This document shows positions 4,001 through 58,143 of a stretch of DNA of 64,000 bases, in pieces. How positions within the stretch are numbered: position 1 is the stretch's first letter; each line of letters begins with the position of its first letter. The notes beneath the pieces are model-generated. The model did not search any database, had not been told where the DNA came from, and worked only from the letters and a program-made list of their open reading frames with translations. The stretch comes from a virus (lineage: Duplodnaviria > Caudoviricetes), in IMG/VR virus record IMGVR_UViG_3300042691_031247. One strand, 5' to 3'. Position numbers and translations under genes: made by a program.

Positions 4001-4324
4001 CGGCACTGGCACATTGATATCTAAGGTGACATCGTACCGGCACGGGTCGATATCTTGCCGCGTAATCGTCAGTTCGTTTTTTGGCGGCGGGCAACCGTCA
4101 TCACCCTCGTTGACAAAGTTAACGCCAATGGATGTCAGCGTGGAAAAATCGGGGCACTGCAGCCCGACCTCTGTAGGCGGCTCGCGCGGGATGATTGGCG
4201 ACTGGCAGCCGAAAATTGGTGGCGGCAGCGGCTCTATTTCGCATACATCGGAAATGAAGTCAAAATCCGCCTTGGGGACGGATTCAATCGGGCACTGCGA
4301 GTCTTTAAAAAGATTTTCAGCCAT
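1..4324 (-). CDS. Giant tail-fibre-like protein (>=1441 aa, 3'-partial): N-terminal Cys/Pro-rich ~60-aa beta repeats followed by a collagen (Gly-X-Y) domain
   Basis: ATG at 4324 lies 1 nt after the TAA of the upstream gene. Manual translation of most of the frame ([23 protein letters not shown]...[15 protein letters not shown]...GATGPQGAT) showed no stop before the window edge. It is missing from the ORF track because it has no stop in the window. Confidence 0.88.
2200..3950 (-). repeat. Tandem 180-bp (60-aa) coding repeats, consensus like [60 protein letters not shown]
   Basis: The PGDC anchor recurs at 2594, 2774, 2954, 3134, 3314, 3494 and 3674 (exact 180-bp spacing). Flanking units are at 2411 and 3884, and degenerate units continue to ~1200. 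Confidence 0.93.
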
Positions 4325-17629: not shown

Positions 17630-18451
17630 CTAAAAAGTGCTTTGTGTGTATTGCTTGTCTAACATCGCTTGAATTTTTGCTGCGCGTTGGCTTACGGCGC
17701 CGGGCGTAATGTTTAATCGGCGAGCAATCTCTTGCGTGCTCGTTTTGCGCCGGCCGTTGCGCCCCAGCGTCATGTCAGCAACAAGCTTGTCGATCGGACT
17801 CAGATCTTCGTAGACAAACTTAAACCACGCGTCCGCCGCTCGCGTGCTGTTCGGAATTGTGCTCGCGACGTCGCCGCCGTAGCTTTCTTCGTCCATAACT
17901 TCGCGTGTTGTCATGCCTTCAGATACAGGCTGATTGAACGCACGAATCTTTTGAATACGGCGCGTAGACAACCCGGTGGCGTCCGCGACTTCATCGTCGG
18001 TCGGCTCGCGGCCAAGCTGGTCACGCAGTTCGTTTTCGCTCTCGTTGAGTCGCGTGTAATCTAACCCTACTTGTTCCGGGATAGCGATAATGTTTTGATT
18101 CTGGGCCGATACCCGCCGGAGACTCTGCAGCTGCGACAGAAGATGTGTGCGCACATTCCCGCGGTTGGGGTCGTACGTGTCGAGCGCTTTTAACGCCATA
18201 AGCTTGGCTCGCGACCGGATTGTCGGGCTGGCGGCTTGCCCGGCGTAACTCATCACCGCGGTGTCGATTACAGGCTGAAGTGTCTGCAGCAGCGCCGAGC
18301 TGGTCTCGGGGGTTTTGTGGGCGGCCCACTGCGGGTACAGACTGTCAAACTCCGGGCTGACGCCGGCTGGTTTTTTAGCTGAAAACGGTGGCGGGGTGTC
18401 GCCCAGTATGGACGGCATGCCTTGCTGCTTTTTGTTATTTATATCGGTCAT
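17630..18451 (-). CDS. Phage sigma70-family RNA polymerase sigma factor
   Basis: Region 2 (ALKALDTYDPNRGNVRTHLLSQL), region 3 (LRDQLGREPTDDEVADATGLS) and region 4 HTH (STQEIARRLNITPGAVSQ). The likely start at 18451 overlaps the hub gene stop (ATGA). Confidence 0.9.
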   Translation of the reverse strand: MTDINNKKQQGMPSILGDTPPPFSAKKPAGVSPEFDSLYPQWAAHKTPETSSALLQTLQPVIDTAVMSYAGQAASPTIRSRAKLMALKALDTYDPNRGNVRTHLLSQLQSLRRVSAQNQNIIAIPEQVGLDYTRLNESENELRDQLGREPTDDEVADATGLSTRRIQKIRAFNQPVSEGMTTREVMDEESYGGDVASTIPNSTRAADAWFKFVYEDLSPIDKLVADMTLGRNGRRKTSTQEIARRLNITPGAVSQRAAKIQAMLDKQYTQSTF

Positions 18452-20070
18452 TTCAGCGTATATCCCGACCATTTTTGGCCTTTGTACAGCGGCGCAGTTT
18501 CTTGCGTAATTTTATTGGTTCTGAGATCTTCTAACTCGGTGCGAATGTACGACAAATCAAGCGACGTGCCGGCGAGGGCGCGTTCGGCGTTAATCGCGTA
18601 AGACACCTTCGTGACTGCCGCAATTAAATGCCCGCCGCCCTTACCAACGTCGCCGTCAGGGAGTTTAATTTTAACGATACTGCCCGGCGCAATATCAAAA
18701 CGCAGTTTACCAGACAGTTCGCCGTATCTTTGGCTTAAAAACTCGGTGTGGTAAAAGTGTTTTGCAAAACGTGTGCATACCTCGTTGTACATGGCATCGG
18801 CGAGTTCGGCTGGCTTTTTCCAGCCGGCCGGTAACGACGATTCACCTGTCTGTGGCGCAAGGCAGTCGCCCGGCCGTTTGCCGCCCTCGCCGGTCGTCGG
18901 CCCGCACATGATCGGCCACGGCGACGTGTTCGCCAACCACGATGGTAAGTCTTTAAATAGCTTTAAACCTTGCTGCGGTTTTTGCGCCGTAGCAGCGTCG
19001 GGCCACTGACCGGACGGCGTCGAAAACTTATCGCTGCTCTGCATGTCACCGCCGAGATGCAGCATAGGATCCATTTGCGCCGGCCAGAACACCGTCACGT
19101 TCTCGATCAGCTGGTGCATGGTCGAGTTAAAGTTGGCGTAGCTATAGTCGTCCGCGTGGATAGTGAGTTTGTCGCTACCGCTAAATTTAAGCCCGCCAAA
19201 AAAAGGAATGACGTACGCTTTGTCGATACACGGCGACACGGCAAAGAAAAACTGCGACGCATAATCACCGACGAGCGTGCTCCAAAATGTTGTATACGCA
19301 AACGATTCAACCGCGTCTTTGGTGAGCGCCTGCCGGACAGACATCTCGGCATTCAAACCGACGCCACTAATATCTAAACTCAATTTTGCCGGACCACTAA
19401 AACTAGGCGCTTCGTCGGGCATGCGCGCGAGGGCTTTGAGCGCGGCGTCATTTGGATCGTTTGACGACGTCTTCCACCCGGCCATGGTTTTAAAAATTGG
19501 TTTAATAACGTCGCCCCACAAATTCTGACTGATATTTGACTCAGTGATAATTTTTTCGTTGGCGTCGATAATCGGGACAGGTGACCAAACGTTTCCGTCG
19601 CTCGTTTGCAGCGCTTCGAAAGCTGCGTTCTGCGCCATCAAAAACGGCGCGTTTGGCGCCCACTTGCCATTAAGCGCAGACGAGTTATTCAGGTCGTCGA
19701 GCCAGTGCACGACGTTGATGACGTAATTGGCGCTATTGTGCGAACGCTGATACCCGACGCTGACCAAAAAACCTTCAAATATCTTTATCTCGCCGCTTTC
19801 CATTTTGTCTGTCTTACCGGCTGACGGTGTAATGGTTAAAAACACTTCAACCGGCGCGCGGGGCTGCAGCGCCACTTTTGCCATATGAATAGTCGCCGGT
19901 GCTCCGCCGCGGGCGTTTTGACCAACGGCGACAGTGATACTCGCGGTCGGTATTGTGTTCAGCGGAAACGACGCCGAAATCGCAACAATCTCATTACTAA
20001 AATCAAACCCAGCTATCTTTGCGCGGAGTTTAAATTTTGTGTGTACGTAATTCGGGTTCAGCTCGGTCAT
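18448..20070 (-). CDS. Baseplate hub protein (T4 gp27 / P2 gpD-like)
   Basis: 540 aa, with IVAISASFPLNTIPTASITV, IFEGFLVSV and GELSGKLRFDIAPGSIVKI...VTKVSYAI. Located downstream of the tape measure. Confidence 0.78.
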   Translation of the reverse strand: MTELNPNYVHTKFKLRAKIAGFDFSNEIVAISASFPLNTIPTASITVAVGQNARGGAPATIHMAKVALQPRAPVEVFLTITPSAGKTDKMESGEIKIFEGFLVSVGYQRSHNSANYVINVVHWLDDLNNSSALNGKWAPNAPFLMAQNAAFEALQTSDGNVWSPVPIIDANEKIITESNISQNLWGDVIKPIFKTMAGWKTSSNDPNDAALKALARMPDEAPSFSGPAKLSLDISGVGLNAEMSVRQALTKDAVESFAYTTFWSTLVGDYASQFFFAVSPCIDKAYVIPFFGGLKFSGSDKLTIHADDYSYANFNSTMHQLIENVTVFWPAQMDPMLHLGGDMQSSDKFSTPSGQWPDAATAQKPQQGLKLFKDLPSWLANTSPWPIMCGPTTGEGGKRPGDCLAPQTGESSLPAGWKKPAELADAMYNEVCTRFAKHFYHTEFLSQRYGELSGKLRFDIAPGSIVKIKLPDGDVGKGGGHLIAAVTKVSYAINAERALAGTSLDLSYIRTELEDLRTNKITQETAPLYKGQKWSGYTLK

Positions 20071-31237: not shown

Positions 31238-34200
31238 TTAGACAACTAAGTGCAGCTCAATGTTGTTGAGCGGCGCCGGGACAGTCAGATCAAGCACAAT
31301 CTCGATACGATCCTTAAGCAGCGGATGAATCTGCAGCTTACGAATCGCGCCGTCGATGAGTTGCGAACCCAGCTCCTCGGTATTACCGTTGCCCTTGAGG
31401 AAATCGATAATCGCCGTGACCTCGTAACGTAACCGACGTACCATGCCCGGCTGCGCGTTCGTGCGGCCGATGAACGGCTTCAGACGGCGGTAGAACAGGT
31501 ACGACATGCTGTCGACGTTACGACGAATCATCTCTTCGCGGCGGTTCAGATCGAGGTTGTCGGTCGTCAAGGCGTGACGCGTGTGCGGCGTGCCGTCCTT
31601 GTCTTCCGTCACGATCCAGACGCCGGCCTCAGCCATGCGGTTAAGCTGGGTTTCGTTGAGGTACTTGTAGGAGCGCGAGAAGTCGTCGAACCCGGCGACC
31701 TCGACGTTCGTCAGCGGCTGGTGGGGCACCACACCGGAGACGAGACCGGCCAGAGCGGCCGCGAGGTAGTAACCGGGCTGAATCGTGCCGGCTTCGCCGA
31801 CCTGATCCGGCCACACGGCGCACACGCGACGGTTCGAAAGCGAACCGCCTTGTTGTGCAACGTCTTCAACGATCTCGTTGCGGTTGCGGTTATGCCAGAC
31901 CTCGACACGCTGCGGAACTGTAACAGCGGCGTCAGCGCCGGAGTACAGCAGCAGGGTCGATTCCGAGATAACCTGATCAACCACGTACTCTTCGTACTGC
32001 TCCTCGCCGAACCCGTCGACCGAGTAGTTGTAGCGCACGATATCGCCGGGACGTACGTCATTCGTGATGAAGTAGCCGTTGCCCGACGTGACCGTCAGCT
32101 TCGTGTACTGCGTGTTGGTGGCGTTCGGGTCGTCGGAGAGCGTGGCAAGAACCGGATCGTCGACCGTCTCGCCAAGCACACCTTCGATGTTAACGCCTTC
32201 ACCAACAACCTTCACGACCGGAACCGCCTTGAGGGCGAAGAAGCCAGCCTTCCAGTTGTTTGCGTACTCGTTCGACTCGCCGCCAATGTGCGCAGCCCAC
32301 AGGTTTTGAATCCTGCGGTCGAACGTCATCGGAACGAGGTTATACATGTCGTCGCGACCCTTGATGCGCTCAAGCACCTGCACCCACTTGTCCATGTCGA
32401 CACCGAGCGAACGACCCTCTTGGTCGTACTTCTCGGGGTCGGCCACGGCGGTGTACTTCACTACGGTGCCGTTGCTGTTAGAGAGCGCCTTGTAAACGCC
32501 CCACTTCAGCGGGTTATCAGGATCGAGCTGGCCCTTGATTTGATCAAGGTCAGCCACGTCGCTGATCGAGTTGACCTGATCGGCCAGCTCAGACAGCCAC
32601 TCGCGGTACTCGACGTACACCTTGCCGGAGATAACCGGCAGGGGCTGCTCGGCGCCAGCGCTTGTCCACTCGGGGTGGTAAGCGACGATGCCTTCCTGTA
32701 CGCAGATCTGGGTGTCTTCGTACCAGAAGTTGGTCATCGGGGCGAATCCGATCCGATTCTTCGAGATCTGGATGTTGTCCTTGATGAACAGCTTAAGGTC
32801 CATGTCTTCGCCGCTGATCAGCTGGCAAGTTGCCGTAGCTGTCACCGCGCCGGGGCCGGACGGCGGCGCCGAAAGCGTGACAGTCGGGGCGCTGGTGTAG
32901 CCGGCGCCACGATCCGTCACAACAACGCCGACAACCATGTCGTCGTTTTCGCCTTGGATGCTGCCGAGCACGGCATAACCGACGGCAGTACGAGCCTGCA
33001 CAAGGTTGCCTGTCGGAGCCGAGAACGTCACAGTCGGGGCGGCGCCGTAACCCGAGCCAGCATTCGTGATGCTGACCGGACCCACCTTGTCGACCGGCGC
33101 GCCGTCCTGCGTGAGCAGTACGGTCGGGAGGTCGTCGCGGAGGATAAGCTGGCGGACCGGGCCGGCCTTGCTGGAGTTAACAGTGATGTACCACTTGTCA
33201 CCCTTGCGGAGACCAGCAACAGCGAAGTTGTCCTCTTGGTCGGTGGCGCCAAGGAAACGAACCTTTACGCCATTCGTGCCGATCGCTACGGAGATGGCGT
33301 TGCCGCCAGCGCCGTCGCCGACAACTTCGGTCGGGCCGGAGAAGTCGAGGCCCTTGACCGTGCGGACAGTGATCTCAGGAAGCTGAGCCCACGTGCCGCC
33401 CTTGGTGCACTCGATGACGTAGGTGTCGTTCTTGGTGCCAGCGTACTTGCCAAGGATGTCAACCGCACCCTGCACGCCGTTTACCGACTCTTCAGTCTGG
33501 TACACGCCGTCAGCGTCCGAAACAGCCTTGACCTTTTCGTACGTCTGCTTGACGTCGAACTTCCACTTCTGACCGACAACAAAGTTATCAAGACCAGTTG
33601 TCGTGAAGCGCACCGAGAGGCCGCGCGTGCCGATGAACGTCACGCCGTCGTTGTCGTCAAAGTCGTTCGGCTGAATTTCAGCCTGATCGTCTGTGCCGGT
33701 TCCCGACACAACGCGCAGACGCGCGGCGTTGCAGCCGGCAATCGTGCTCTTGATGACTTCGACGTAATACTCTTCTTCAACTGCACCGGAGACAAGACCG
33801 TCGTAATCATTGGCGCCTTCGTCTTGGGCGCCAAGAACGGTCACTGCAACTGCGTTATCAACACCCTCGATCTGCGTAACAGTTACGTCAACGCCGTTGG
33901 CGCTTTCGGCTGTGTAGCTGTCTTGGTTGTTAACGTCAGCAGTGGCGGGCAGAATGCGCGACGGAACAAGGTCGCTGGCAAAGCCGGTTACATATGTCTC
34001 AAGCACAGTCTCGATGCAGTCGTTGTCGGCGCTCACAGTGCGGAGCTGAACAACGTCGCCGAGCTGAACGTCACGATCGAAGAACACGCTCGAACGCGGG
34101 TACGCAGCGCCGTTCGACTTGAACGACAGTGTGCTGGACTGCACCCAGTTGGTCTTGCCGGGAACGGCTGTAATCGTCGTGTCGCTCTCGCCCATGTTGT

Positions 34201-34474
34201 GCTGGTAGTAGCGCAGCATGGCGTCGTCAACATAAAGCTTGACGTAAGGAAGATCGACAACAGAGCCGGGCAGACGTTGCGGCCACGTGTAGCACGTATC
34301 GTTAAGACGATCGTACTGACCGAGAAGGCTGAACCGCTTCTCGTCCGTGTTGCTATAGCGGTGAAGAATGCCGTGCGGACCAGCGATGTGGGCGCGCAGC
34401 GGTTCCGTGATCTCCGTGGGGACGATACGGAACTCTTGGAAAACGAGTACTTGTGGTTTTACGTAGCTCGACAT
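31238..34474 (-). CDS. Contractile tail sheath protein (large, with inserted domains)
   Basis: 1078 aa. Sheath C-terminus (YYLAAALAGLVSGVVPHQPLTN; EEMIRRNVDSMSY; DRIEIVLDLTVPAPLNNIELHLVV). Strong codon bias and a GGAGG SD. Confidence 0.93.
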   Translation of the reverse strand: MSSYVKPQVLVFQEFRIVPTEITEPLRAHIAGPHGILHRYSNTDEKRFSLLGQYDRLNDTCYTWPQRLPGSVVDLPYVKLYVDDAMLRYYQHNMGESDTTITAVPGKTNWVQSSTLSFKSNGAAYPRSSVFFDRDVQLGDVVQLRTVSADNDCIETVLETYVTGFASDLVPSRILPATADVNNQDSYTAESANGVDVTVTQIEGVDNAVAVTVLGAQDEGANDYDGLVSGAVEEEYYVEVIKSTIAGCNAARLRVVSGTGTDDQAEIQPNDFDDNDGVTFIGTRGLSVRFTTTGLDNFVVGQKWKFDVKQTYEKVKAVSDADGVYQTEESVNGVQGAVDILGKYAGTKNDTYVIECTKGGTWAQLPEITVRTVKGLDFSGPTEVVGDGAGGNAISVAIGTNGVKVRFLGATDQEDNFAVAGLRKGDKWYITVNSSKAGPVRQLILRDDLPTVLLTQDGAPVDKVGPVSITNAGSGYGAAPTVTFSAPTGNLVQARTAVGYAVLGSIQGENDDMVVGVVVTDRGAGYTSAPTVTLSAPPSGPGAVTATATCQLISGEDMDLKLFIKDNIQISKNRIGFAPMTNFWYEDTQICVQEGIVAYHPEWTSAGAEQPLPVISGKVYVEYREWLSELADQVNSISDVADLDQIKGQLDPDNPLKWGVYKALSNSNGTVVKYTAVADPEKYDQEGRSLGVDMDKWVQVLERIKGRDDMYNLVPMTFDRRIQNLWAAHIGGESNEYANNWKAGFFALKAVPVVKVVGEGVNIEGVLGETVDDPVLATLSDDPNATNTQYTKLTVTSGNGYFITNDVRPGDIVRYNYSVDGFGEEQYEEYVVDQVISESTLLLYSGADAAVTVPQRVEVWHNRNRNEIVEDVAQQGGSLSNRRVCAVWPDQVGEAGTIQPGYYLAAALAGLVSGVVPHQPLTNVEVAGFDDFSRSYKYLNETQLNRMAEAGVWIVTEDKDGTPHTRHALTTDNLDLNRREEMIRRNVDSMSYLFYRRLKPFIGRTNAQPGMVRRLRYEVTAIIDFLKGNGNTEELGSQLIDGAIRKLQIHPLLKDRIEIVLDLTVPAPLNNIELHLVV

Positions 34475-40668: not shown

Positions 40669-42012
40669 TCAACGATTCACGAGTTCGAGAACGTGCTGCT
40701 TCATCATGTCCCGCAGCTGGCGCGAACGCTTTGTGCGAGCTTCTTTGACTTGAAACCGACCAGCACGCTTAAAGTTTACAACAGCGCGACCGATGGCGTC
40801 TAAATCTTTAGCAGCAGCCATCTTCGGTTCTTCCATCGGCGGCATACCCGCGTCAGGCGCAGCGCCAGCTTCGGGCGGCATACCGCCTTCTGCGCCAGCA
40901 CCACCGGCCCCGGACAGAGCTTGCAGCAACGCTTCCGGCGGAATGCCGAGTTCTTCAAGCGCCATAGCCAGCTCTTGAACAGCCTCGTCTTCCGACGGCT
41001 CGCCGCCGGCAGCTTCAGGAGCCGGGCCACCCTCAGCGCCCATCATGGCTTCAAGACCAGCGGGTGCGCCGCCAGCAGCAGCGTCATCAGCCGGGGCGTC
41101 GCTCATACCAGAAGCAGCGTCTTCCGGCGCGGAGTGATCCTCGCCTTCAGCCGCCTCTTCGGTCGGATCGGCGGCCGCGGCCTTGGAGTTTACAAAACCG
41201 ATAAACAGGTCGGCCATTTCGTCGGCTTCGCGGATCGTGTTAGCGCACACTTCGCGAACGGAAGCTTCGGCAGCAGCCTTGTCCATACCGAGATGCGCGG
41301 CAAGCTCGTAACCCGCTTTGAACGCGGCAGCTTTGTCGCTGCGAAGCGCGGCAAGATCAGAACCTTCAATCTTGCCATCGTTGTCGGTGTCGAGTTTGTG
41401 CTGGTCGCCTTTTAGCTCGCCGGTCGACTCGCTTTTTTCTTCGGACTTCTCTTCAGTCTTTTTCTTTAAAAAAGCCGGCATCTCGGCCGCCTTCTCGTTG
41501 GTCAGCTTACTGGCGCCAAAGTTGATAAGGTTGGCAAGAATGTCGTTACCAAGTGTGCCGGCACGATCGCGAGCTTCCTTGAACGTAACCGAGCTGTACT
41601 TCTCGCCGTCGTTAGCCTTGACCGGCGACGAAGTGCCCGGGTCATCCTTATCGCCCTTGAAATCTTTCTCGTTGGACGGATCTTCGCCAGTGGCCTTGGC
41701 CGAGACGCCGATGTTCGTTTGAACTTCGTCTTGGCGACCTTCTTGCGACATCTCCGGTGTGTTGTCTACAGCAAGAGCACCCTGCTGCTTCTTGACGTCA
41801 GCTTCGTACTCGCTGGCGCGCGCACCAGTGCTGGCGTTTTGCACGCCGTTGTCAGCGCTGGTCGTCGGATGCGATGAGGCACCCTGATAGCCACCCGGAT
41901 CAGCGGGCACGGGACCGGCCGACTTTTCAGCCGCAGTCTTAACCGGGCTCTGCGCAATCTCAGCGGCGAGAGCGTTAAGTTGATCGAACAGTGAACGTTG
42001 CATCCGTGCCAT
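40669..42012 (-). CDS. Scaffolding-like protein (acidic, low complexity, many K-x-A motifs)
   Basis: 447 aa directly after the protease, with VKTAAEKSAG, EKAAE, DKAAA (twice), SKAAA and PKMAAA. Confidence 0.68.
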   Translation of the reverse strand: MARMQRSLFDQLNALAAEIAQSPVKTAAEKSAGPVPADPGGYQGASSHPTTSADNGVQNASTGARASEYEADVKKQQGALAVDNTPEMSQEGRQDEVQTNIGVSAKATGEDPSNEKDFKGDKDDPGTSSPVKANDGEKYSSVTFKEARDRAGTLGNDILANLINFGASKLTNEKAAEMPAFLKKKTEEKSEEKSESTGELKGDQHKLDTDNDGKIEGSDLAALRSDKAAAFKAGYELAAHLGMDKAAAEASVREVCANTIREADEMADLFIGFVNSKAAAADPTEEAAEGEDHSAPEDAASGMSDAPADDAAAGGAPAGLEAMMGAEGGPAPEAAGGEPSEDEAVQELAMALEELGIPPEALLQALSGAGGAGAEGGMPPEAGAAPDAGMPPMEEPKMAAAKDLDAIGRAVVNFKRAGRFQVKEARTKRSRQLRDMMKQHVLELVNR

Positions 42013-43515: not shown

Positions 43516-44499
43516 TTACTCTCCCGCGGACGAGCCGCCCAAGCTGTTAAGAAGCGCCGGGACGCTAAGTGCGCCAAGGACCGGAAGACCAATACCAGCC
43601 ATCCGTCCGCCAAAACGCGGTAACCGACGCAGCGCCTGTTGCAGCTGCGCGCCAGTCAAACGGCGGCCAGCCTTACCAACACCAGACGCCGGCTCTGACG
43701 CAACTGCGGCAAGGACGTTAGCTGTGTCGTCAGCGCCGTGGCCAAATAAGCCGCCTAAGAAGTTACCGCGCGCGGCGTTCGTCGCGCCGCGTACACGCGG
43801 GCCGACCGATGACGGCGTCGTCATACCAGCAGATTCAAGCGGCAGGCTAACGTCACGCGGCACGTAATCCGCGCCGCGGAGTCGGCGGATGCTGTTGAGC
43901 ATTTGCTGTGTGAACGACGGGTCGTGTGTGGCGTCGGGAAGGCCGCGTACATGCTTTGTGAGGTTTTCTGTAACACGTGACGGACCGGTATTTGCGCGCA
44001 GCTGTTCGATAGTGGGGCGAAGTTGCTTGGCGACGTCGTCACCGGACGCAAGAAACCGATCCATCTTGCCGTACGCGTCAATGGAGTTTGCTATTTGCCG
44101 CCCGCCGTAGCCGCCGACGCCAGCGCCCGCCAGATTAAGCAACGCGCCGCCAGAAGAGCCATCTTGGCCTTTTGCGGCAGCGATGGCGGGCGGCGGGTCA
44201 GTCTTGGTCAGCAGCATGTTCTTAGCCGCTGTCGCGCCAAGGCCGCCGATGCCGCCCATCAGCGCATAGTCGAGCATGGCGCGCCGTTTCTTTTTCCCCT
44301 GCAGCGCGCCGATTAAACCACCGGCGCCGGCACCGAGGGCGGCGTTCTGCAGATACGGGTTGCTCAGGATCTGAGACAGGTCAGCTTGCTTGCCGAGTGC
44401 CGCAGTTACTGTGGCTACTTTTTCAATTGCCGGATCGGGCGTGCGTGTAGCAATCGCCGACAAACCGCGGGCAAGCTCTTGTACGTCTGTTGTTTTCAT
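43516..44499 (-). CDS. Gly-zipper putative internal-head/ejection protein
   Basis: 327 aa, Cys-free. Contains AALGAGAGGLIGAL, GGIGGLGA and GAGVGGYGG, plus an N-terminal EKVA..GKQA. Confidence 0.55.
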   Translation of the reverse strand: MKTTDVQELARGLSAIATRTPDPAIEKVATVTAALGKQADLSQILSNPYLQNAALGAGAGGLIGALQGKKKRRAMLDYALMGGIGGLGATAAKNMLLTKTDPPPAIAAAKGQDGSSGGALLNLAGAGVGGYGGRQIANSIDAYGKMDRFLASGDDVAKQLRPTIEQLRANTGPSRVTENLTKHVRGLPDATHDPSFTQQMLNSIRRLRGADYVPRDVSLPLESAGMTTPSSVGPRVRGATNAARGNFLGGLFGHGADDTANVLAAVASEPASGVGKAGRRLTGAQLQQALRRLPRFGGRMAGIGLPVLGALSVPALLNSLGGSSAGE

Positions 44500-49661: not shown

Positions 49662-51542
49662 TCACGGCTTCCACCCGCTTGTTGTGCCTGTTACGCCGAA
49701 CTGCTCGCCTTGGGCTAGAGCGGGCACATAACTGCTGCCCGCGGTATCGCTACTTAGGCCGCGTTGCACGCTATTCATAAGCCCTTTTTCTTGATACGAG
49801 CCCAGCATGCGGGTCATCCAGTCGGGGTCATTTGAGATATTCGCCATACCTCGCACCATTTCGGGCTGGAACGGCGGTGGTTCTTTGTGGGCTTGAATTG
49901 TCTTCACGCCGTATTTATTCAAATTGGTCAGCACGTTTTTACCGATCTTTGTGCCAATTGAATAGTGCAATACCGGTTTTTCAAGGTAATGCCCGGTTAA
50001 TGTGTTAGGCGCGGCTGATACGCTACCTTCACGCGGCGTCCAATTACGTTCAATTGCTGAGTAGGGCACTACATCGTCTGGCGCATAATCGCCGTACTCG
50101 TCATTCAAACGCACGTGATTAACAAGACCGCGCGCAAGTAGCTCGATGTTCCGTCGGTGGGCTGTAATGCCGCTATTGCCCATGACCTGCCGCATCGCCT
50201 GCACAAAGTAACGGCGGCCTTCTCCTACCCCTTTGTGCCGGACAATTTCAGCTGGATTTGGCATACCGTCGGATATGACGTCGCCGGCTTCAAGCTCGTC
50301 GCCTTTTTTAACAGCAAGCTTTCGCTCGGTCGGAACGTAGTGATCCTGCCCGTTAATCTGCACGTAATAACCGCCCTGCGGCGCTGGCCGAACTTCTTGT
50401 ACTCGCCCGTCAAGCTGCGAATGCGCTGCGCCGTCTGGATATTTTTTCGGGACCTGTACCAGCGCGTTAAGCGCTTTAAAGCCAGAAATCGCGCCCGCGC
50501 CACCAACGCCGCCCGAGTGCTTCGAGCTGATCTGGCTTTGCGTAACCGGCTCGGACAGCGCCTGTGCGGCGGTAATGCCTACGTAATCGCCGATGGGCGG
50601 TAGGCGCCCCTTCTCCCGGTAACCAACGTCTTTGGCGTAAACGCCGCCATCGCCCGGGCCGCCGACAATCGGACTGCGGACTAAGATATCTTTAGCGCCG
50701 CTTTCTTTCAGGTCTCGCAAGATCTTGGGCGTCAGAATTGTATTGCGTTTATACGGCCCGACAGCGCGAGCGAGTAACGCACCTTCGTTGTCTGGATCGT
50801 CTACGTCGGTGGGGTAGCCGCGCTCTTCCGCGGTCATGCGCCGCTCTTCATCGTCGTTATCATCGTCATCTGCCGTAACGAGCAGTCGGTGCGTCATCTG
50901 CGCAAGCTGTTTACCGTAGAACCCCGCGTCGGCGGTGGCCGTCTTCAGATCGATAACGCCCTTGCGGGTACCGAACGCGCCGGCAAAGTATTCAACCGGG
51001 CGCAAACCTTGGCTGTAGCCGCGCAACACCGGAATTGGAATCGGGTCGCCGCGGTGGTCGAGATACTGCATGTCAGCGCCAAGAATCGAGTTTAACTGAA
51101 ACTTGTTACCGACGCCGGCGCCAGCAATTTGATGCACCAGCGGATTATCTTGACCTTCCGCTTCTTTGTACACTTTTTCGAGAAGTTCTTGCTGCGCTGC
51201 TTGCGCAAGTTCGAGGAGCTTGATGTTGCGCTGTTTTTCGTCAAGCCGGCGATCGGCAAAGATGTCGCGCATCTGATTTTGCACACGCAGTTGCACGTGA
51301 CGTGCCGCAAGCGTCGGGCGAATGTCTTTAAGCCCGAACGATAAGCCGTTTGTCGTATACCCGGCGTCGCGGCCGATGTCGTGAAGCCGCTTCATGACTT
51401 CGCGGTATTTTTCTGGATGCGTTTTGGCTAGCTCAGTCGCGACACCGGACATTGTCTTTTTCGTCAACACACGATCGTAGTCGCGCATCTCGGGCGGCAA
51501 CGCTTCGTTAATCAGGAGTTGGCCGAGCGTTGTCTTCAGCAT
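49662..51542 (-). CDS. rpoC: Phage RNA polymerase beta' subunit, C-terminal half (funnel, bridge helix, trigger loop, jaw)
   Basis: Contains TTLGQLLINEALP, GLRPVEYFAGAFGTRKGVID..TADAGFYGKQL (bridge helix), GITAAQALSEPVTQ......HSGG (trigger loop) and HRRNIELLAR. Confidence 0.93.
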   Translation of the reverse strand: MLKTTLGQLLINEALPPEMRDYDRVLTKKTMSGVATELAKTHPEKYREVMKRLHDIGRDAGYTTNGLSFGLKDIRPTLAARHVQLRVQNQMRDIFADRRLDEKQRNIKLLELAQAAQQELLEKVYKEAEGQDNPLVHQIAGAGVGNKFQLNSILGADMQYLDHRGDPIPIPVLRGYSQGLRPVEYFAGAFGTRKGVIDLKTATADAGFYGKQLAQMTHRLLVTADDDDNDDEERRMTAEERGYPTDVDDPDNEGALLARAVGPYKRNTILTPKILRDLKESGAKDILVRSPIVGGPGDGGVYAKDVGYREKGRLPPIGDYVGITAAQALSEPVTQSQISSKHSGGVGGAGAISGFKALNALVQVPKKYPDGAAHSQLDGRVQEVRPAPQGGYYVQINGQDHYVPTERKLAVKKGDELEAGDVISDGMPNPAEIVRHKGVGEGRRYFVQAMRQVMGNSGITAHRRNIELLARGLVNHVRLNDEYGDYAPDDVVPYSAIERNWTPREGSVSAAPNTLTGHYLEKPVLHYSIGTKIGKNVLTNLNKYGVKTIQAHKEPPPFQPEMVRGMANISNDPDWMTRMLGSYQEKGLMNSVQRGLSSDTAGSSYVPALAQGEQFGVTGTTSGWKP

Positions 51543-51543
51543 G

Positions 51544-51783
51544 TCACGGCGTCCAGACGATGTTTTGCAACGATTTCGGCTTGAAGTCGGTTACAACAAC
51601 TGTTTTATTGATACCCAGCGCGCGTAACATTGGATGAAAATCTTTTTCACCCACGGTTGAATAAACAACCGCCTCGTCGACTTGAATGGCGACGAATAGC
51701 GGGTTACCTAGATCGTCCTCGACAACGACGCTGTGCGATTTCTGCTCAGCGGGTTGAAGATTGTGCTGCGTTTTAACCAGCAT
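51544..51783 (-). CDS. Small hypothetical protein between the RNAP genes
   Basis: 79 aa, beta-rich, Cys-free. Coupled to both neighbours. Confidence 0.6.
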   Translation of the reverse strand: MLVKTQHNLQPAEQKSHSVVVEDDLGNPLFVAIQVDEAVVYSTVGEKDFHPMLRALGINKTVVVTDFKPKSLQNIVWTP

Positions 51784-52501
51784 TGTCCGCAATACTCCGA
51801 ATCATGGCGGCGATAGCATTTGCTTTGATCTGCATTGCCGTGGGCGCATTCGGATTCGAGTAGCTGGGGCCGAACGGCCGGCCGATTGACGACGCAGACT
51901 TTTCAGCGCGGTCCCACCACGCCGCCTTAGACGGATCACCCTCTGGCGGTGCGGCGTTCGGCGGCATCGGGCCGCCCGGGGGCATCGGACCACCCGGCGG
52001 TTGCATACCGGCCTGCGCGTTGGGATCTTGCGCGGGAGGCGCCATCGGGCCGCCGGGCAGCGCGGTTTCAGCCGGCGGGGCGCCGGTTGTTCCGGGCGGG
52101 AGCACAAGTGACTCTGGCGGAACTTGCACACCCATCGCGTTCATAATGGCCGTGAGCTGCTGCTGCATGTTGTACAAGCGATAGTCGAGCATCTGCATCA
52201 TCTGCTCGGGCTTTAGTTTTTGCTGCGTGCCTGCAGGGGCTGCGCCCGGAGCGGCGGGTGCGGCGGGCGCTGCGGGAGGAGCAGCGGGCGGCGCCATACC
52301 CATAGCCGCAGGATCCACTGGCGGTGCAGCTGCTGCAGCAACAGCAGACGGATCGGCCGGCGGTACAGCCCCCATGGCGGCTGGGTCAACCGGCGGAGCA
52401 CCACCAGCAGCAGCGGGATCCACCGCCGCTCCGGGCACTAATGCGGATTTTTCAAAGCGCGCCTTCGCCAGCGCAATGAGTTCGGGGTTTACCGTGAACA
52501 T
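51773..52501 (-). CDS. Pro/Ala-rich low-complexity protein with a central helical segment
   Basis: 242 aa behind CATGGAGG. PAAP/PPGGPM tracts flank MMQMLDYRLYNMQQQLTAIMNAMG. Contains EKSA twice. Confidence 0.65.
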   Translation of the reverse strand: MFTVNPELIALAKARFEKSALVPGAAVDPAAAGGAPPVDPAAMGAVPPADPSAVAAAAAPPVDPAAMGMAPPAAPPAAPAAPAAPGAAPAGTQQKLKPEQMMQMLDYRLYNMQQQLTAIMNAMGVQVPPESLVLPPGTTGAPPAETALPGGPMAPPAQDPNAQAGMQPPGGPMPPGGPMPPNAAPPEGDPSKAAWWDRAEKSASSIGRPFGPSYSNPNAPTAMQIKANAIAAMIRSIADNAG

Positions 52502-52521
52502 ACAGCCTCCATGTTTAACGA

Positions 52522-55500
52522 TTACGTATTATCTTCCACAATATGAACCGGGGTGTCCACCTCTATTTCGCCGCGCCGGTACGCCTGCATGGCATCCTGC
52601 TTGCTGCGAAACACGCGTGGTTTAGCTTTTTTACTGATTCGACTGGACGCTAAGTATAACCCAGTCTGGTAGTCTTTGTTTGGGACGTAGTGCGCCTTGA
52701 ACGTCGAAGCTGCAAACAGGTTCTTACTCGGCAGCATCTTTTCCACGGCTTCTTTAGCGGCGTCTTCGGTACTTGGGACGTGATACTGCATCGCGTCGCC
52801 GTCGAAGTCAGCGCCGAACCCCTTCGTGATTACGGGGTTTACTTCCATGACTTTGTTCTTAGTTAACTTGGGGTAAAACGCCATCATGCCGTAACGGTGA
52901 AGCACGGGCGCGCGGTTAATAACAATAGGCCGCGACGACATCTGCCGATCTAGCTCGGCGCCAGCTTCTTTCGTCTTGTCTTCCACGGCCTGCATCGCCT
53001 GCATGCGCGGAAGACCCCTGCGAACAAGACCGCGCACAACGAACGGCTTGTAAATATCCCACGCTTTCTCTTCCGGCAACGCAACCTCGTCCATGTCGAG
53101 ATCGGGATTCGGTGTAATGACCGCGCGCCCCACGAGGTCGACCGTGGAGCTAAGAAGCTTACGCTGCACGGTGCCGTACTTTGGCGAGTTACCGAACACG
53201 TGCCGCAGAAAACCTTTCACATTGCGCTCAACGTTTTTCGGCTGCTGCGGCTCACCCAGTCCAGTGACAGCCTTCATCGAGTCATACACGCTCAGGCGTT
53301 CGTCGCCGTAATCGGCCAGCGCGCCAGACGCCTCTTTCAGTGTGTCGTTCGCATCAAGCAGTTCTTTGTACAGATAGTTTGCGTCAGCGACGAGCGGCAG
53401 CTTCTTACTGCCCATCGTGCTCACGGGGCGGAAGAGTGGCGGCAAGACGGGGACTTTACTAATCATCCAGTCTTTGGGGTGCACGCCGGTTGTTTCCGCG
53501 CTCTTTAAGAACCCCAACCGGCGCACGGCAGCGTCGCGAAGCGTCTTGCGCCCGGATTTAATATCTAAACGCGCCTGCTCGATAGCCTTTGGTAGGTTAA
53601 TTCGTTCAAGCGCGGCCTTGATCGCCGTGGGCCCTGTTTTGTCGCCCAGCTGTTCGCGACCAGCCAGCACGCCGCGGAACTGCTTTTCCGTCATCCCCAG
53701 TACGCGTCGAATCGGGTCTTCCATGACCGGATTCGGCAGCGGCTCGTGCAGCGTGATCTTGCTCCACCTGTTACCGCCGTGGCCGCCCGTCAAAGCCTCA
53801 TCAAATAAACCGCCGGCAATAGGCTTGAGGCGCCCCTTCCAGTCAACGGTCTCAGAGCTTTTCAATTCACGCGGACCGGCCAGCTCGTCGATGTCTTTGT
53901 CGGTCATGGCCATGAGGTTCGACCGCGTGCCTTTGCGCACAACGTTAATACCAGACGCCCTAAGCTGCCCGACGAACTTCTCGTATACGTGTGGCACCTT
54001 GGGTAGCGGCGGAGTGTAGCCGGCCATGAACTGCGACCAGTATTCGGGATTTGCTTGGCCGCGCACCATCTTGGCGTCGCGAATAACCTTACCGGCGCCG
54101 TGCGAAAGCAGCGCGCCAAGATCCAGCATGCCGACGCGCTTGGCGCCTTCGCTGCCGCCCTTCGCCGGAGTGCCTTCGGCTGTATATGCACCCATCGACC
54201 GGCCCTGCGCTTTTGATTCGCTGGTATGGTGCAGCTTCATGAAAAACCGGCTGCCGGTCAGCACACCGCCGATTTTCCGCCCGGTTTCTGCGTCGATGAC
54301 GTCTTCGGTATCGGACAGCCCGTGCTTTGCCAGTTCTTTCTGCGCAAACTCAATGAGGTCGTTTTTGTTATCAAAGTCCTTGAGCTTGTACGGCGAGCCG
54401 GTCTTTGCTGCGACCTTGCCTAGTGCGGCTTCAATCACCTGCGCCGGGTTAATACGGCTGATCAGACCCAGCGGCGAGACGAGCACTTCAAAAGGATTGC
54501 CGTCGCGGTCTTTGGGCATCTGGTCGTCAGGTACGATCTCTGCGACGACGCCCTTGTCGCCAAAGCGCCCGGTGAGCTTGTCGCCAACGTCCATGGGCGC
54601 TTGGTTTTTAACGACAACGCTCACACCCTTCTTGGTGTGCATAACGTCGGTCACGATACCCGGCGCATGATGCTCCCACGTGATTGTGTCGTTTGTAAAG
54701 TTACCAGCACGCCCACGATGCACTTTGCCGTACACCGTGTCTTTCTTTTTGGCCACGAGCACGAGCGGGTCACCAAACTTGACCTCAGTACCTTTTTTAA
54801 TCGCGCCGTCGTCGTCAAAGTTGTCAAGATACTTTTTGTCGTACTCAGTCGGGAACAAACTCACGAACGCCTTCTTGCCAACGTGAGTGTTGTCGTCCCA
54901 CTCGGCTTCGTGCTGATACATGTGCTCAGACGTTAGCCGCTTGGATGCGGATTCAGAGATAACTACCGCATCTTCGTAGTTCTTGCCGCGGAACGGCAGA
55001 TAGGCTGTACGCAGATTCAAGCCGAGCGCTGCGCTGCCGTTTTGATCTGTAAAGTTCGACCGGGCGAGCAGTTGTCCGGGCTCTACCGTGTCGCCGGGCT
55101 TCACAATCGGCGTCTGGTGTAAGAACGTCTTACGGTTGTACGGCATTTCGTTATACAAATCGATCGTCTTCTTATTACCATCTTTGTCGCGCAGTACGAT
55201 GCCGTCAGGTGTGACATCGACGACTTGCGCGCGTTCGGTAGCCCGGGTGGCGCCAAGCTTTTCGCCCATCTCGTCTTCGTGCGACATGCTCTCGTCATCG
55301 GCCTTGGCGGATTGCAGCAACGGCGCCTCGGCGTTTACTAGCGGGAGCGCTTGCGTAAACATACGGCTACCCATGATCACGCGGTGGCCTTTGATCATGG
55401 ACTTAATCGGCACCATGTTGGATAACGTCGAAAACGTTGAATCCATGTTCGGCAGGCTGAACTGCGCCTCTTTACGCGGAACATACTTGAGCTTGCCGTT

Positions 55501-56925
55501 GACGAGCGCTGCCACCACGGGAAGTCCGTTATCTTCTTCGCCGGGAAACACGAGCGGCGTATCGGCCAGCTCTTGCGGCGTCTTGTACACCTTATCGCCG
55601 GTTTTCATATCAACAACCGGCGTATACACCTTGCCGTCGGAGCCCTTCATAGCGCCGCGGGCAAAGCGCATGTCAACACCCACCTTGCCGGATTCTGGCG
55701 TGCGAAGATAGTCGATAAACCCAAGGTGGCTGGGCTGCACAGAACGTGACTCGGCAGGCACGGCGTCCAGCGAGCCAATGCCGCCTTCGCCCATACGGGT
55801 CACACGCGTCTGGTGGTCAAAGATCTCCGCAGGATTAATTTCTTCTAAACTCGACCCCAGACCGCTGCCAATAAGCGCAGCTGAGATTGCCTTGTCGAAT
55901 ACGCCCGACGGAATGTGATCAATTGACTTCTTCGCCGTAGCTTTCCAGAGCAGCTTGTTAAGCGATTGGCGGTCTTTGGTAAAACGCTCGGCAATGAGGT
56001 CCTCCGGGCCGACGACGGACTGATACACCATGTTGTCTCGGTCGTCGCTCTCGGCCTCGCGGCGATTCACTGCGATTAATTTCTTAGTGATCGCCAGAAT
56101 CGTCTCCGGCGTCATGTTCTTGTATTCAGAACCCAGTGTGCGCCGGGTGACTTCCGGGTCGAGTTCGGTCTTGGCAAACTCGGCCGCGATCGCCTGCGCT
56201 TTGGCAATAGCGTCTGCGCCGGCAACTGGTTTGTTTACAAGGCGGGCGTAGATCTTGTCCATCGTGCCAGCATCGCCCTTCTCCATGTTGACGGCGGTGA
56301 TCTCATTGCCCCACGCTTTGCGGATGTCCTGATCTGACACGCCCATGGACTTGAGCAGCGGCATGAGCGGGATCTGCGCCTGACCAATGCTGATTTTGAA
56401 CACGCCGGTTTTGGGGTCGAGGAAGTACCGGTGCGAACGGCCCTTACCCGGTAGCGTGTTTACGTGCGCCTCAATCTCGCCGTTGTCTTTCTCGCGGGTA
56501 AACACGCCGGGGCGCAACCGCATCTGGTGCGCAAGGGTGTACTCGACGCCGCCGTTAACGAACGTGCCCGAGTCGGTGAGATACGGCACGTGGGCGATCG
56601 TGGCGCGGCGCTGGCCGACAGGCTGCCCGGTTTTGTTATCTGTAAGCGTCCACGTACCTTGCAGCCGGCGGGCAAGTGTCCCTCTGGAAAGGACAGCTTT
56701 CTTCTGATCTGACCTTGTGAAGCGCTCAGGTCCCGAATACCCGACGTCTTGCAGCTGCAACGTATACAGGTCATTCTGCAGCGGCTTGAGCCCCTGCGCG
56801 CTCGTAAGCGCCTGATTAAAAATGTTATCCCGCATCACGCCAACGTCGCCGAACGTGCGCATCGTGGGCGCGACCGGCGCGGGTGTCATCGGCGATTTTA
56901 AGTCGGGCAGTTCAGGGGTCGGCAT
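52522..56925 (-). CDS. rpoB/rpoC: Phage RNA polymerase: fused beta subunit plus beta' N-terminal half, containing the catalytic DFDGD
   Basis: Beta motifs RTPESGKVG, MGSRMFTQA, KNYEDA, GDKLTGRFGDKGVV and GAKRVGMLD. Beta' motifs follow: ETVDWKGRLKPIAGGLF, VLPPLFRP, LLSSTVDLVGRAVI, NRAPVLHR and GADFDGD (52795-52815). Confidence 0.95.
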   Translation of the reverse strand: MPTPELPDLKSPMTPAPVAPTMRTFGDVGVMRDNIFNQALTSAQGLKPLQNDLYTLQLQDVGYSGPERFTRSDQKKAVLSRGTLARRLQGTWTLTDNKTGQPVGQRRATIAHVPYLTDSGTFVNGGVEYTLAHQMRLRPGVFTREKDNGEIEAHVNTLPGKGRSHRYFLDPKTGVFKISIGQAQIPLMPLLKSMGVSDQDIRKAWGNEITAVNMEKGDAGTMDKIYARLVNKPVAGADAIAKAQAIAAEFAKTELDPEVTRRTLGSEYKNMTPETILAITKKLIAVNRREAESDDRDNMVYQSVVGPEDLIAERFTKDRQSLNKLLWKATAKKSIDHIPSGVFDKAISAALIGSGLGSSLEEINPAEIFDHQTRVTRMGEGGIGSLDAVPAESRSVQPSHLGFIDYLRTPESGKVGVDMRFARGAMKGSDGKVYTPVVDMKTGDKVYKTPQELADTPLVFPGEEDNGLPVVAALVNGKLKYVPRKEAQFSLPNMDSTFSTLSNMVPIKSMIKGHRVIMGSRMFTQALPLVNAEAPLLQSAKADDESMSHEDEMGEKLGATRATERAQVVDVTPDGIVLRDKDGNKKTIDLYNEMPYNRKTFLHQTPIVKPGDTVEPGQLLARSNFTDQNGSAALGLNLRTAYLPFRGKNYEDAVVISESASKRLTSEHMYQHEAEWDDNTHVGKKAFVSLFPTEYDKKYLDNFDDDGAIKKGTEVKFGDPLVLVAKKKDTVYGKVHRGRAGNFTNDTITWEHHAPGIVTDVMHTKKGVSVVVKNQAPMDVGDKLTGRFGDKGVVAEIVPDDQMPKDRDGNPFEVLVSPLGLISRINPAQVIEAALGKVAAKTGSPYKLKDFDNKNDLIEFAQKELAKHGLSDTEDVIDAETGRKIGGVLTGSRFFMKLHHTSESKAQGRSMGAYTAEGTPAKGGSEGAKRVGMLDLGALLSHGAGKVIRDAKMVRGQANPEYWSQFMAGYTPPLPKVPHVYEKFVGQLRASGINVVRKGTRSNLMAMTDKDIDELAGPRELKSSETVDWKGRLKPIAGGLFDEALTGGHGGNRWSKITLHEPLPNPVMEDPIRRVLGMTEKQFRGVLAGREQLGDKTGPTAIKAALERINLPKAIEQARLDIKSGRKTLRDAAVRRLGFLKSAETTGVHPKDWMISKVPVLPPLFRPVSTMGSKKLPLVADANYLYKELLDANDTLKEASGALADYGDERLSVYDSMKAVTGLGEPQQPKNVERNVKGFLRHVFGNSPKYGTVQRKLLSSTVDLVGRAVITPNPDLDMDEVALPEEKAWDIYKPFVVRGLVRRGLPRMQAMQAVEDKTKEAGAELDRQMSSRPIVINRAPVLHRYGMMAFYPKLTKNKVMEVNPVITKGFGADFDGDAMQYHVPSTEDAAKEAVEKMLPSKNLFAASTFKAHYVPNKDYQTGLYLASSRISKKAKPRVFRSKQDAMQAYRRGEIEVDTPVHIVEDNT

Positions 56926-56928
56926 GAA

Positions 56929-57783
56929 TCACCCCGCCTGCGATTGCTCAACTTGCTGCTTCAGCGCGATGATCTCGTCGGGATCGACGTACGTCGGCAA
57001 AATGCCGGAGATGCGCGCTTTCGACTTCGCGGCTTCTTCAACCGCTTTGGCGCGGGAACGCTCGCGCGCACGATCGTACATTAACTTGGCAGCCAGACCG
57101 CCGAGTCCCAAACCACCAGCAACGTATGTGCCGCCGAGCGCCGCCGGCACCCGTTTCGCTGTGTCGTACGCGCTGGTGAGCCAGTCGAGCAGCGCCTTCT
57201 TCTCCGCAGCTGCTTTTTCGCTCGCGGTGTCGTATGCGCTGTCGAGCGCTTTGGCCGGGCCGCCGGTCAGCGCGTCGTAGTACTCTTTTTCAGCAGCCGC
57301 GATTTGCTCCTGCTGATCGCGCTTCTTTTTGCGCTTGTGCAGCGTCTCGATCAGTTTGTAACCGCCGAGTCCGCCCAAAGCCGCGGCGCCAAACGTCGCG
57401 CCCGTACCAAATGACGAACGAATCACGTTCGGGTCGTACGAGTTCTGGCTTTTGCTTGTGGCGGGCGTGAACGGCCGTAAAAAACTGAGCACTGAATCTG
57501 GCAGCATTTTGCCAACGCCTTCAGTGACGTTGTCGTATATGCCAGCGGCTTTTGTCTCGGTAATCTTGGGCGTTTCTTCTTCGTCTTCTTCGTACTTCGG
57601 CTTGTTTAGCGCCTGAGAAAGCCCGCGGGCCAGATAATACAAACTAGCAGCAGTAGCACCAGCGCCAAGCCCGCCAACACCAGTACGGATAATACGATTG
57701 CCCCAGAAACGCTGGTAATCTTGGGCGGTAGGTTGGCCAACAGGGGCTGCGGGTGGGATGGCATTGTTTGCTAGTTTTTCCAT
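56929..57783 (-). CDS. Gly-zipper putative ejection/internal protein
   Basis: 284 aa, Cys-free. Three hydrophobic Gly-rich segments each followed by basic or coiled-coil stretches. Contains MEKLA, TKAAG and EKAAA. Confidence 0.55.
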   Translation of the reverse strand: MEKLANNAIPPAAPVGQPTAQDYQRFWGNRIIRTGVGGLGAGATAASLYYLARGLSQALNKPKYEEDEEETPKITETKAAGIYDNVTEGVGKMLPDSVLSFLRPFTPATSKSQNSYDPNVIRSSFGTGATFGAAALGGLGGYKLIETLHKRKKKRDQQEQIAAAEKEYYDALTGGPAKALDSAYDTASEKAAAEKKALLDWLTSAYDTAKRVPAALGGTYVAGGLGLGGLAAKLMYDRARERSRAKAVEEAAKSKARISGILPTYVDPDEIIALKQQVEQSQAG

Positions 57784-57795
57784 TGGTCGCGCTCA

Positions 57796-58143
57796 CTAGT
57801 GTTTGGGCGGAATCATGCCATAAACCTGTGCCCATTCAAGCCAGACACGAAAATGTTTATGTTCATCGTCCCAGTTGTCGGTTCGTTTTAATAGCCGATA
57901 CCAGCCGTTGACTATCTTATCATTTATATCGTCAAATTCTGATTTTTGCGCCGTATCCCACAGCTCAAACATATGCGATTTAAAGTCGTACTGGATATCA
58001 ATGTTTTCCAGTTCGTCTTGCTTTAAATCTGCCCGCTGCCCGCCATTCAGCACAGGAAACCCGTCGAGAGTTCCCGGCCAATTTAGCTGAGCGTTGTTGT
58101 GCTGCGGACCGCCGATTTCGCCGTGATATTTGCGCAGGCTCAC
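57796..58143 (-). CDS. Hypothetical protein
   Basis: 115-aa ORF with GTG start, closely packed with neighbours. Confidence 0.62.
   Translation of the reverse strand: MSLRKYHGEIGGPQHNNAQLNWPGTLDGFPVLNGGQRADLKQDELENIDIQYDFKSHMFELWDTAQKSEFDDINDKIVNGWYRLLKRTDNWDDEHKHFRVWLEWAQVYGMIPPKH

Follow-up and report, generated by a model that had tools for sequence, protein, structure and literature searches.

Virion-borne RNA polymerases (RNAPs) are known from N4-like, phiKZ-like, crAss-like and P23-45-like phages, and none of these uses a sigma-70-family factor. The virion RNAPs of N4 (gp50) and DEV (gp71) and their ejection partners are devoid of cysteine, and a survey of 191 Schitoviridae found 0.00075-0.0055% Cys in the RNAP and in both ejection partners compared to a background of 0.865%, a suppression that was attributed to the transit of these proteins through the disulfide-forming periplasm (PMC11445570). 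In phiKZ about ten copies of a multisubunit virion RNAP are packaged and injected, and the list of its virion subunits has been confirmed (PMC10612078). As summarized in reviews, large phages with a multisubunit RNAP of their own lack a sigma factor, and those with a sigma factor lack the RNAP (PMC7824862, PMC7598289). RNAP proteins were also reported in the virions of Salmonella phage Arash, without follow-up by the authors (PMC10585845). Here we describe the RNAP of an uncultured phage (Duplodnaviria; Caudoviricetes; IMG/VR record IMGVR_UViG_3300042691_031247), encoded by two genes at positions 49,662 to 56,925 of a 64,000-nucleotide stretch, which as a whole is called the window in the following. 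The phage is contractile-tailed and belongs to a very large family of uncultured phages; its record of 198,101 bp was judged 97% complete and carries nearly all genes on the minus strand, and the window corresponds to its bases 14719-78718. Both RNAP chains are free of cysteine, as are a sigma-70-family factor and an SNF2 helicase of the same genome, and the enzyme is probably packaged and injected into the host.

A scripted recount of both open reading frames (ORFs) confirmed what a first, sequence-only reading had noticed by eye, as the large chain (1467 residues) and the small chain (626 residues) together contain no Cys in 2093 residues (for coordinates see Table 1). The probability of this result is 1e-14 at the background of 1.53% Cys in all predicted proteins of the genome and 3e-12 at the 1.27% of the window ORFs, and the absence is real and far beyond chance. 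Both genes belong to an unbroken Cys-free run of six ORFs (49662-58143; 2816 residues). The triplets TGT and TGC occur out of frame 78 + 42 times in the large and 30 + 21 times in the small gene, which adds up to 171 out-of-frame and no in-frame occurrences. The many out-of-frame copies rule out an avoidance of TGY at the DNA level (e.g. as part of a restriction site); Cys is absent at the codon level only, and a single substitution would turn 445 codons of both genes into Cys. The same recount upheld the remaining proteins listed as Cys-free in the sequence-only reading, namely the sigma factor, a 1628-residue ORF and the ORFs starting at 43516, 44502, 51773 and 56929.

The enzyme is a bacterial-type RNAP, because Pfam and BLAST against the E. 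coli subunits give the same domain order, and it has two catalytic barrels, as the sequence-only reading had also stated. In the large chain, Pfam matches to Rpb2 domain 6 (E=2e-50) and, weaker, to Rpb2 domains 3 and 2 are followed by Rpb1 domain 2 (E=1e-24) and a weak match to Rpb1 domain 1. The beta-type barrel (RNA_pol_Rpb2_6, residues 584-915) scored 172 bits, the cut-off being 23.4, and 176 bits in the genome scan, the beta'-type barrel (RNA_pol_Rpb1_2) scored 88 bits against 25.3, and the small chain matched RNA_pol_Rpb1_5 with 85 bits against 28.5 (E=7e-24). The BLAST alignment of the large chain covers rpoB 81-1337 followed by rpoC 160-540, and that of the small chain rpoC 722-939 and 1180-1286, with 25-31% identity to E. 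coli; beta' is split after the catalytic barrel. We refer to the two chains as beta-beta'N and beta'C. The large chain also carries the metal-binding motif ADFDGD, with D1373-F-D-G-D1377 being invariant in the homologue alignment. A natural fusion of beta and beta' exists in Helicobacter. A search of the whole genome with the protein, PF00562 and PF00623 led to a single multisubunit RNAP locus, and a second RNAP set as present in phiKZ was rejected on this basis; alpha or omega subunits did not turn up, no search having been aimed at them.

Compared to the E. coli core enzyme with sigma-70 and RapA, the phage system has the same beta-then-beta' domain order, the ADFDGD motif, a sigma-70-family factor (with region 3 over and regions 2 and 4 below the Pfam cut-off) and an SNF2 ATPase partner analogous to RapA, but it differs in the split beta' and in lacking the Cys and zinc ligands. 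E. coli beta has 7 and beta' 15 Cys, eight of the latter in two zinc sites. The ligands of the second site, C814, C888, C895 and C898, align with N/D, G, Y and D in the small chain, and the zinc-ribbon region at the N-terminus of beta' (rpoC 1-160) found no aligned counterpart in the phage RNAP. Judged from these alignments, the Cys4 zinc sites of bacterial beta' are missing from the phage enzyme, which is a difference between lineages and does not concern a core feature of the superfamily.

Cysteine being common in close homologues, which the sequence-only reading had named as evidence that would speak against it, was looked for and not found. Among the 120 closest homologues of beta-beta'N (76-100% identity), 108 have no Cys, four have one and eight have 11-15. 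In these eight, all but two Cys are located inside an insertion of about 345 residues between E411 and S412, which begins with Cys, ends with Asn and is followed by Ser at the +1 position, identifying it as an intein. Its insertion site (RTPE/SGK) lies in the conserved fork region. For beta'C, 1087 cluster representatives with E<1e-30 were obtained in an exhaustive search, and the best 150 of them (46-57% identity) were analysed. Their RNAP-aligned residues contain 81 Cys in 92,754 (0.087%), their insertions 486 in 25,105 (1.94%) and their Ala/Pro/Gly/Gln-rich C-terminal extensions 26 in 58,527 (0.044%). Most of the 81 aligned Cys, in intein-bearing representatives, look like first residues of inteins that were misassigned by BLAST. 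In the 18 representatives examined, the insertions proved to be inteins, located at a minimum of five sites (after about residues 200, 209, 329, 338 and 358-361), all with Ser at +1. The inteins of both chains begin with C and end with ..SN, ..HN or ..GN before the Ser; a match to a LAGLIDADG endonuclease was only weak. With Ser at +1, the mature RNAP remains free of Cys after splicing. The inteins are a natural control, in which the excised part gains Cys approximately 20-fold faster than the retained part in the same frame and genome.

Inteins are thus frequent in the RNAP genes of the family, a hot spot in which a single protein may contain as many as three or four (e.g. P0121, P0143, P0163, P0217 and P0014); the RNAP genes of the window carry none. 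About half of the beta'C representatives have a highly variable, low-complexity C-terminal extension of 350-1160 residues (e.g. P0124, P0137 and P0231), which is possibly a packaging or delivery tail. The beta'C of the window ends without such an extension, and a separate gene for a 242-residue Ala/Pro-rich protein, similar in composition to the Cys-free extensions of many beta'C homologues, sits between the two RNAP genes instead. That the extensions are fusions with the downstream gene for an 801-residue protein was rejected, as no similarity was found.

The best matches among phage records were Arash (OQ632216) and the Vibrio phages D69, D148 and D181. With 1 Cys in the 1525 residues of Arash Gp206 (beta-beta'N) and 4 in the 606 of Gp216 (beta'C), and with 2 in 1527 and 4 in 609 for the D69 chains, the depletion of Cys persists at 23-32% identity.

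The only sigma factor found in the genome is also Cys-free. Its 280-residue product matched sigma region 3 with 39.9 bits (cut-off 25.3) and regions 4 and 2 below the cut-off (20.9 and 11.5 bits), was assigned to PHROG 351 (sigma factor, E=4e-12) and shares 28% identity with the annotated sigma factor Gp10 of Arash. All 120 homologues (65-100% identity; 32,397 residues) lack Cys. Queries with PF04542, PF04545, PF04539 and Arash Gp196 detected no second sigma factor in the genome, only the 280-residue gene. An SNF2 helicase encoded beyond the window is the fourth component free of Cys and had been missed by the earlier reader; its homologues (n=120) contain 6 Cys in 76,946 aligned residues (0.008%). 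In one homologue (P0207) beta'C is fused to an SNF2 helicase with 44% identity to the 710-residue helicase of this genome, and the SNF2 gene directly follows beta'C in Arash, the two being about 28 kb apart in the IMG/VR phage. An SNF2 helicase also co-varies with the RNAP genes in phiKZ-like phages (PMC7824862), and the SNF2-type helicase Gp203 of phiKZ is annotated as a structural protein.

Packaging was approached via Arash, which resembles the IMG/VR phage in its beta-beta'N fusion with separate beta'C, in a sigma gene within the tail module and in the SNF2 helicase. D69 shares the fused-plus-split RNAP, but its sigma gene lies elsewhere and not in the tail block. Both phages differ from the IMG/VR phage in having 1-4 Cys per RNAP chain instead of none; Arash has in addition a second sigma factor, Gp196, with no counterpart detected in the IMG/VR phage, and its RNAP genes lie between the portal and capsid genes, whereas the portal gene of the IMG/VR phage is about 70 kb away. 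Mass spectrometry of Arash virions led to Gp206 as the top protein, with 128 unique peptides and 3516 spectra, and to 40 and 1210 for Gp216, 38 and 1148 for the SNF2 helicase Gp217 and 24 and 467 for the sigma factor Gp10, compared to 32 and 877 for the portal protein (PMC10585845). Replication enzymes, probably carried over, were represented by 2-3 unique peptides each, and Gp196 is missing from the list of virion proteins (PMC10585845). Gp217 (472 residues) and Gp10 (234 residues) have no Cys, compared to 3 in the 345 residues of Gp196. Normalized to length, the spectral counts are 2.3, 2.0, 2.4 and 2.0 for Gp206, Gp216, Gp217 and Gp10, and 1.5 for the portal, values that, spectral counts being crude, would agree with a complex of fixed stoichiometry and a copy number above a few. 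The Arash study neither discusses cysteine nor demonstrates injection (PMC10585845). Encapsidation of the RNAP and its sigma factor, as claimed from the sequence alone, is thereby supported indirectly, with Gp206, Gp216 and Gp10 among the best-detected virion proteins; that these proteins are also ejected, and pass the tail unfolded as the claim went on to say, we infer.

According to the orthologues in 67 related IMG/VR loci, the rule is specific for certain genes: the RNAP genes and small flanking ORFs show 0.04-0.3% Cys (beta-beta'N 0.039% in 60 orthologues, beta'C 0.055%), and the genes interleaved with them 0.96-4.7%. The latter are the 801-residue protein (0.957%), a 485-residue ORF resembling Arash Gp222 (2.15%), a 378-residue ORF (2.34%) and a 119-residue ORF (4.7%). 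The C-terminus of the 801-residue protein weakly matches the gene after beta'C in D69. The RNAP genes are co-oriented with their neighbours and packed head to tail, the Arash and D69 homologues of the downstream genes are virion proteins or lie in their position, and a sheath-like gene (31238-34474) is located further downstream of the RNAP block and upstream of the 1628-residue ORF. This placement would fit a late co-expression with the structural proteins and not early transcription of these genes by the host polymerase.

Table 1. Cys-free genes and an interleaved control gene of the IMG/VR phage (positions refer to the window unless given as genome; orthologues are from the related loci)
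Feature	Position	Strand	Evidence or Cys content
RNAP large chain (beta and N-terminal part of beta' fused, both catalytic barrels)	52522-56925	-	Pfam, E. coli alignment
RNAP small chain (C-terminal part of beta')	49662-51542	-	Pfam Rpb1_5, E. coli alignment
Sigma-70-family factor, 280 residues, in tail/baseplate gene block	17630-18472	-	0 Cys; Pfam Sigma70_r3, PHROG 351
SNF2 helicase, 710 residues, outside the window	genome 94414-96546		0 Cys; Pfam SNF2-related and Helicase_C
Ala/Pro-rich Cys-free protein between the RNAP genes, 242 residues	51773-52501	-	46 orthologues, 0.109% Cys
Cys-free ORF just upstream of beta'C, 82 residues	51544-51792	-	16 of 18 orthologues without Cys
Ala/Gly-rich Cys-free protein immediately upstream of the RNAP gene, 284 residues	56929-57783	-	31 orthologues, 0.061% Cys, 29 with none
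Most upstream ORF of the unbroken Cys-free run, 115 residues	57796-58143	-	44 orthologues, 0.31% Cys
Cys-free ORF, 127 residues	46806-47189	-	44 orthologues, 0.051% Cys, 41 with none
Cys-free ORF, 327 residues, adjoining the next	43516-44499	-	orthologues 0.13% Cys
Cys-free ORF, 457 residues	44502-45875	-	orthologues 0.24% Cys
Neighbour gene between Cys-free genes (internal control), 801 residues	47199-49604	-	7 Cys; 62 orthologues, 0.957% Cys, none Cys-free
Met-rich Cys-free ORF in tape-measure position, 1628 residues	21420-26306	-	0 Cys, 66 Met

No Pfam or PHROG family was matched by the small flanking Cys-free ORFs. Repeated small-xxx-small (glycine-zipper-like) segments and basic patches were observed in the 284-residue and the Ala/Gly-rich 327-residue proteins, which resemble membrane-active ejection proteins in composition only; a hydropathy scan of the Gly/Ala-rich proteins gave weak hydrophobic windows only, and membrane insertion is not claimed. 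The 242-residue and 284-residue proteins may be co-packaged or ejection proteins, and the 327-residue protein and its helical, Ala/Leu/Lys-rich neighbour of 457 residues are candidates for internal head or ejection proteins. The label 'tape measure' for the 1628-residue ORF, suggested by its size and position alone, was not confirmed by Pfam or PHROG. Downstream of the RNAP block lies a 447-residue acidic, Ala/Glu/Gly/Asp-rich protein with 1 Cys and a scaffold-like composition (40669-42012). On the fibre side of the tail block, an ORF at 1-4324, which extends upstream of the window to 1510 residues in the genome, has 69 Cys (4.6%), and the tail protein Gp191 of Arash is likewise Cys-rich (4.4%). 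Cys-rich external proteins and a putative Cys-free cargo would be combined in one particle.

With regard to other virion RNAPs, the absence of Cys from the N4 enzyme, which the sequence-only reading had pointed to, is borne out in print and has been generalized to the ejection operon of the Schitoviridae (PMC11445570). N4 and DEV resemble the IMG/VR phage in that Cys suppression extends over the RNAP and its partners, in their case the ejection proteins gp51/gp52, and they eject a particle-borne RNAP to start transcription. The N4 enzyme is different in being a single T7-like chain of about 3500 residues that needs no sigma factor, comes from a short-tailed phage and is non-homologous to the RNAP described here. 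The virion RNAP of phiKZ and AR9 (phiKZ Gp80, Gp149, Gp178 and Gp180) is, like the enzyme of the IMG/VR phage, a packaged multisubunit two-barrel RNAP, but it consists of 4-5 chains, is accompanied by a second, non-virion set and has its Cys content only halved. The non-virion enzyme of phiKZ, counted over the subunits generally assigned to it, of which the papers cited here confirm Gp55 only, contains 33 Cys in 2850 residues (1.16%). With Pfam matches over the cut-off, the RNAP of the IMG/VR phage is much closer to bacterial beta and beta' than that of phiKZ. The phiKZ group also lacks a sigma factor (PMC7824862), whereas the IMG/VR phage has one. The virion RNAP gp66 of the crAss-like phage phi14:2 and the tape-measure-fused RNAP of Thermus phage P23-45 are reported to be two-barrel and particle-delivered as well. 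They differ in being highly divergent single chains without a sigma factor, in which beta and beta' are unrecognizable beyond the barrels, and P23-45 has a second, non-virion RNAP in addition. In phi14:2 gp66, 2 Cys were counted in 2180 residues. In the IMG/VR phage the suppression is shared with the putative co-ejected partners, as the RNAP, sigma factor, SNF2 helicase and flanking ORFs all have 0 Cys, a state conserved in the relatives. Such an extreme suppression is a strong pointer to ejected cargo, not a proof.

We propose, with a probability of about 65%, that RNAP, sigma factor and SNF2 helicase are packed in the virion and expelled into the host, and that the absence of Cys is the footprint of this route. 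The two RNAP chains, the sigma factor and the SNF2 ATPase would be synthesized late, at the time of the structural proteins, enter the capsid and leave it with the DNA for the host cell, where transcription of the first phage genes would be carried out by the delivered proteins and not need the host polymerase. A cargo that is stored and then passes largely unfolded through the tail channel and the envelope would have to avoid wrong disulfides and Cys-bound zinc, and the total absence of Cys may be explained because extracellular storage and unfolded transit would forbid both. This reasoning matches the one proposed for N4-like ejection proteins. For the IMG/VR phage itself we infer packaging, ejection and unfolding as well as this reason for the exclusion of Cys.

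Several observations weigh against this proposal. The virion RNAP of phiKZ, known to be injected, has 16 Cys in 2614 residues (0.61%), and because it keeps them, the absence of Cys is not required for injection via a contractile tail. The virion evidence was obtained for the Arash orthologues, which are only 23-32% identical to the proteins of the IMG/VR phage. Moreover, ribonucleotide reductase, ligase and primase were among the 116 proteins of the Arash preparation (PMC10585845), which certainly contained some carry-over, and a DNA-binding enzyme, if abundant, could be purified along with the particles. An 846-residue tail-fibre protein with collagen repeats encoded outside the window (genome 118059-120599) is also Cys-free, as a result of its Gly-X-Y composition, and the absence of Cys can have such trivial compositional causes in some proteins. 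Finally, no 8-mer besides T-runs was over-represented as a possible promoter word in 85 intergenic regions.

The RNAP might also be packaged and its Cys excluded by long oxidative exposure in the extracellular particle, that is by thiol oxidation or zinc loss during storage, instead of unfolding or passage through the periplasm. This would agree with the loss or replacement of both zinc sites of bacterial beta' and with the metagenomic origin of the relatives, some of which were binned with Alpha- and Betaproteobacteria, and the injection of a Cys-bearing RNAP by phiKZ indicates that transit alone does not demand zero Cys. Yet the particle also has capsid, tail and fibre proteins with 1-4.7% Cys, and non-enzymatic proteins such as the Ala/Pro-rich and glycine-zipper-like flanks and the 1628-residue putative tape measure are Cys-free too, for which a shared route fits better than the protection of an active site. 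We consider storage as the sole cause unlikely, though worth keeping in mind.

Packaging itself could be questioned if the RNAP were a middle or late enzyme, following a T7-like strategy with early genes read by the host, and if its lack of Cys had another cause, such as zinc independence or resistance to a thiol-directed factor of the host or the phage. The virion data do come from Arash and not from the IMG/VR phage, the Arash proteome includes non-structural enzymes as contaminants, and the phiKZ enzyme illustrates that the absence of Cys is not diagnostic. This explanation is nevertheless quite improbable, given that the Arash RNAP is the best-detected protein, with its 128 unique peptides far from the 2-3 of obvious contaminants, that the Cys-free sigma factor Gp10 is found in Arash virions and its Cys-containing paralogue Gp196 is not, that the rule reaches non-enzymatic neighbours, and that the RNAP and sigma genes lie among structural genes and not in an early region. 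An ancestor that lacked Cys by chance, with descendants too closely related to regain it, might be suspected from the 76-100% identity of the closest beta-beta'N homologues. Such inertia is hardly credible and was rejected, as it is contradicted by the beta'C representatives, among which the rule holds at 46-57% identity in the best 150 of 1087, and by the related loci. Even at 23-32% identity Arash and D69 keep 1-2 Cys in about 1525 residues, 445 codons are one step from Cys, and inteins and interleaved genes of the same genomes accumulate 1-4.7% Cys.

Virion RNAPs as such, the Cys suppression in ejection proteins and the presence of the Arash proteins in virions are already established. New are the extension of the Cys rule to a bacterial-type RNAP with its sigma-70-family factor and SNF2 partner across a very large uncultured family, and the use of inteins as an internal control for it. 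The family combines RNAP, sigma factor and SNF2 helicase, all carrying the Cys-free mark published for N4-like ejection proteins. If packaging and injection hold true, Cys content would be a simple sequence predictor of cargo in uncultured phages, calibrated by inteins and interleaved genes, the enzyme would be a naturally zinc-free and thiol-free bacterial-type RNAP of enzymological interest, and Arash would be a cultured and tractable relative in which to study how a two-chain enzyme of about 230 kDa and its sigma factor cross the envelope. More tentatively, at somewhat less than even odds, a whole bacterial-type initiation machine of two-chain core, sigma factor and SNF2 helicase in roughly equal amounts would be the capsid cargo and, delivered via the contractile tail, serve as the sole polymerase, making the phage independent of the host enzyme; the ban on Cys and the inteins with Ser at +1 would be the mark of this route, and a very large uncultured family may thus follow a third strategy.

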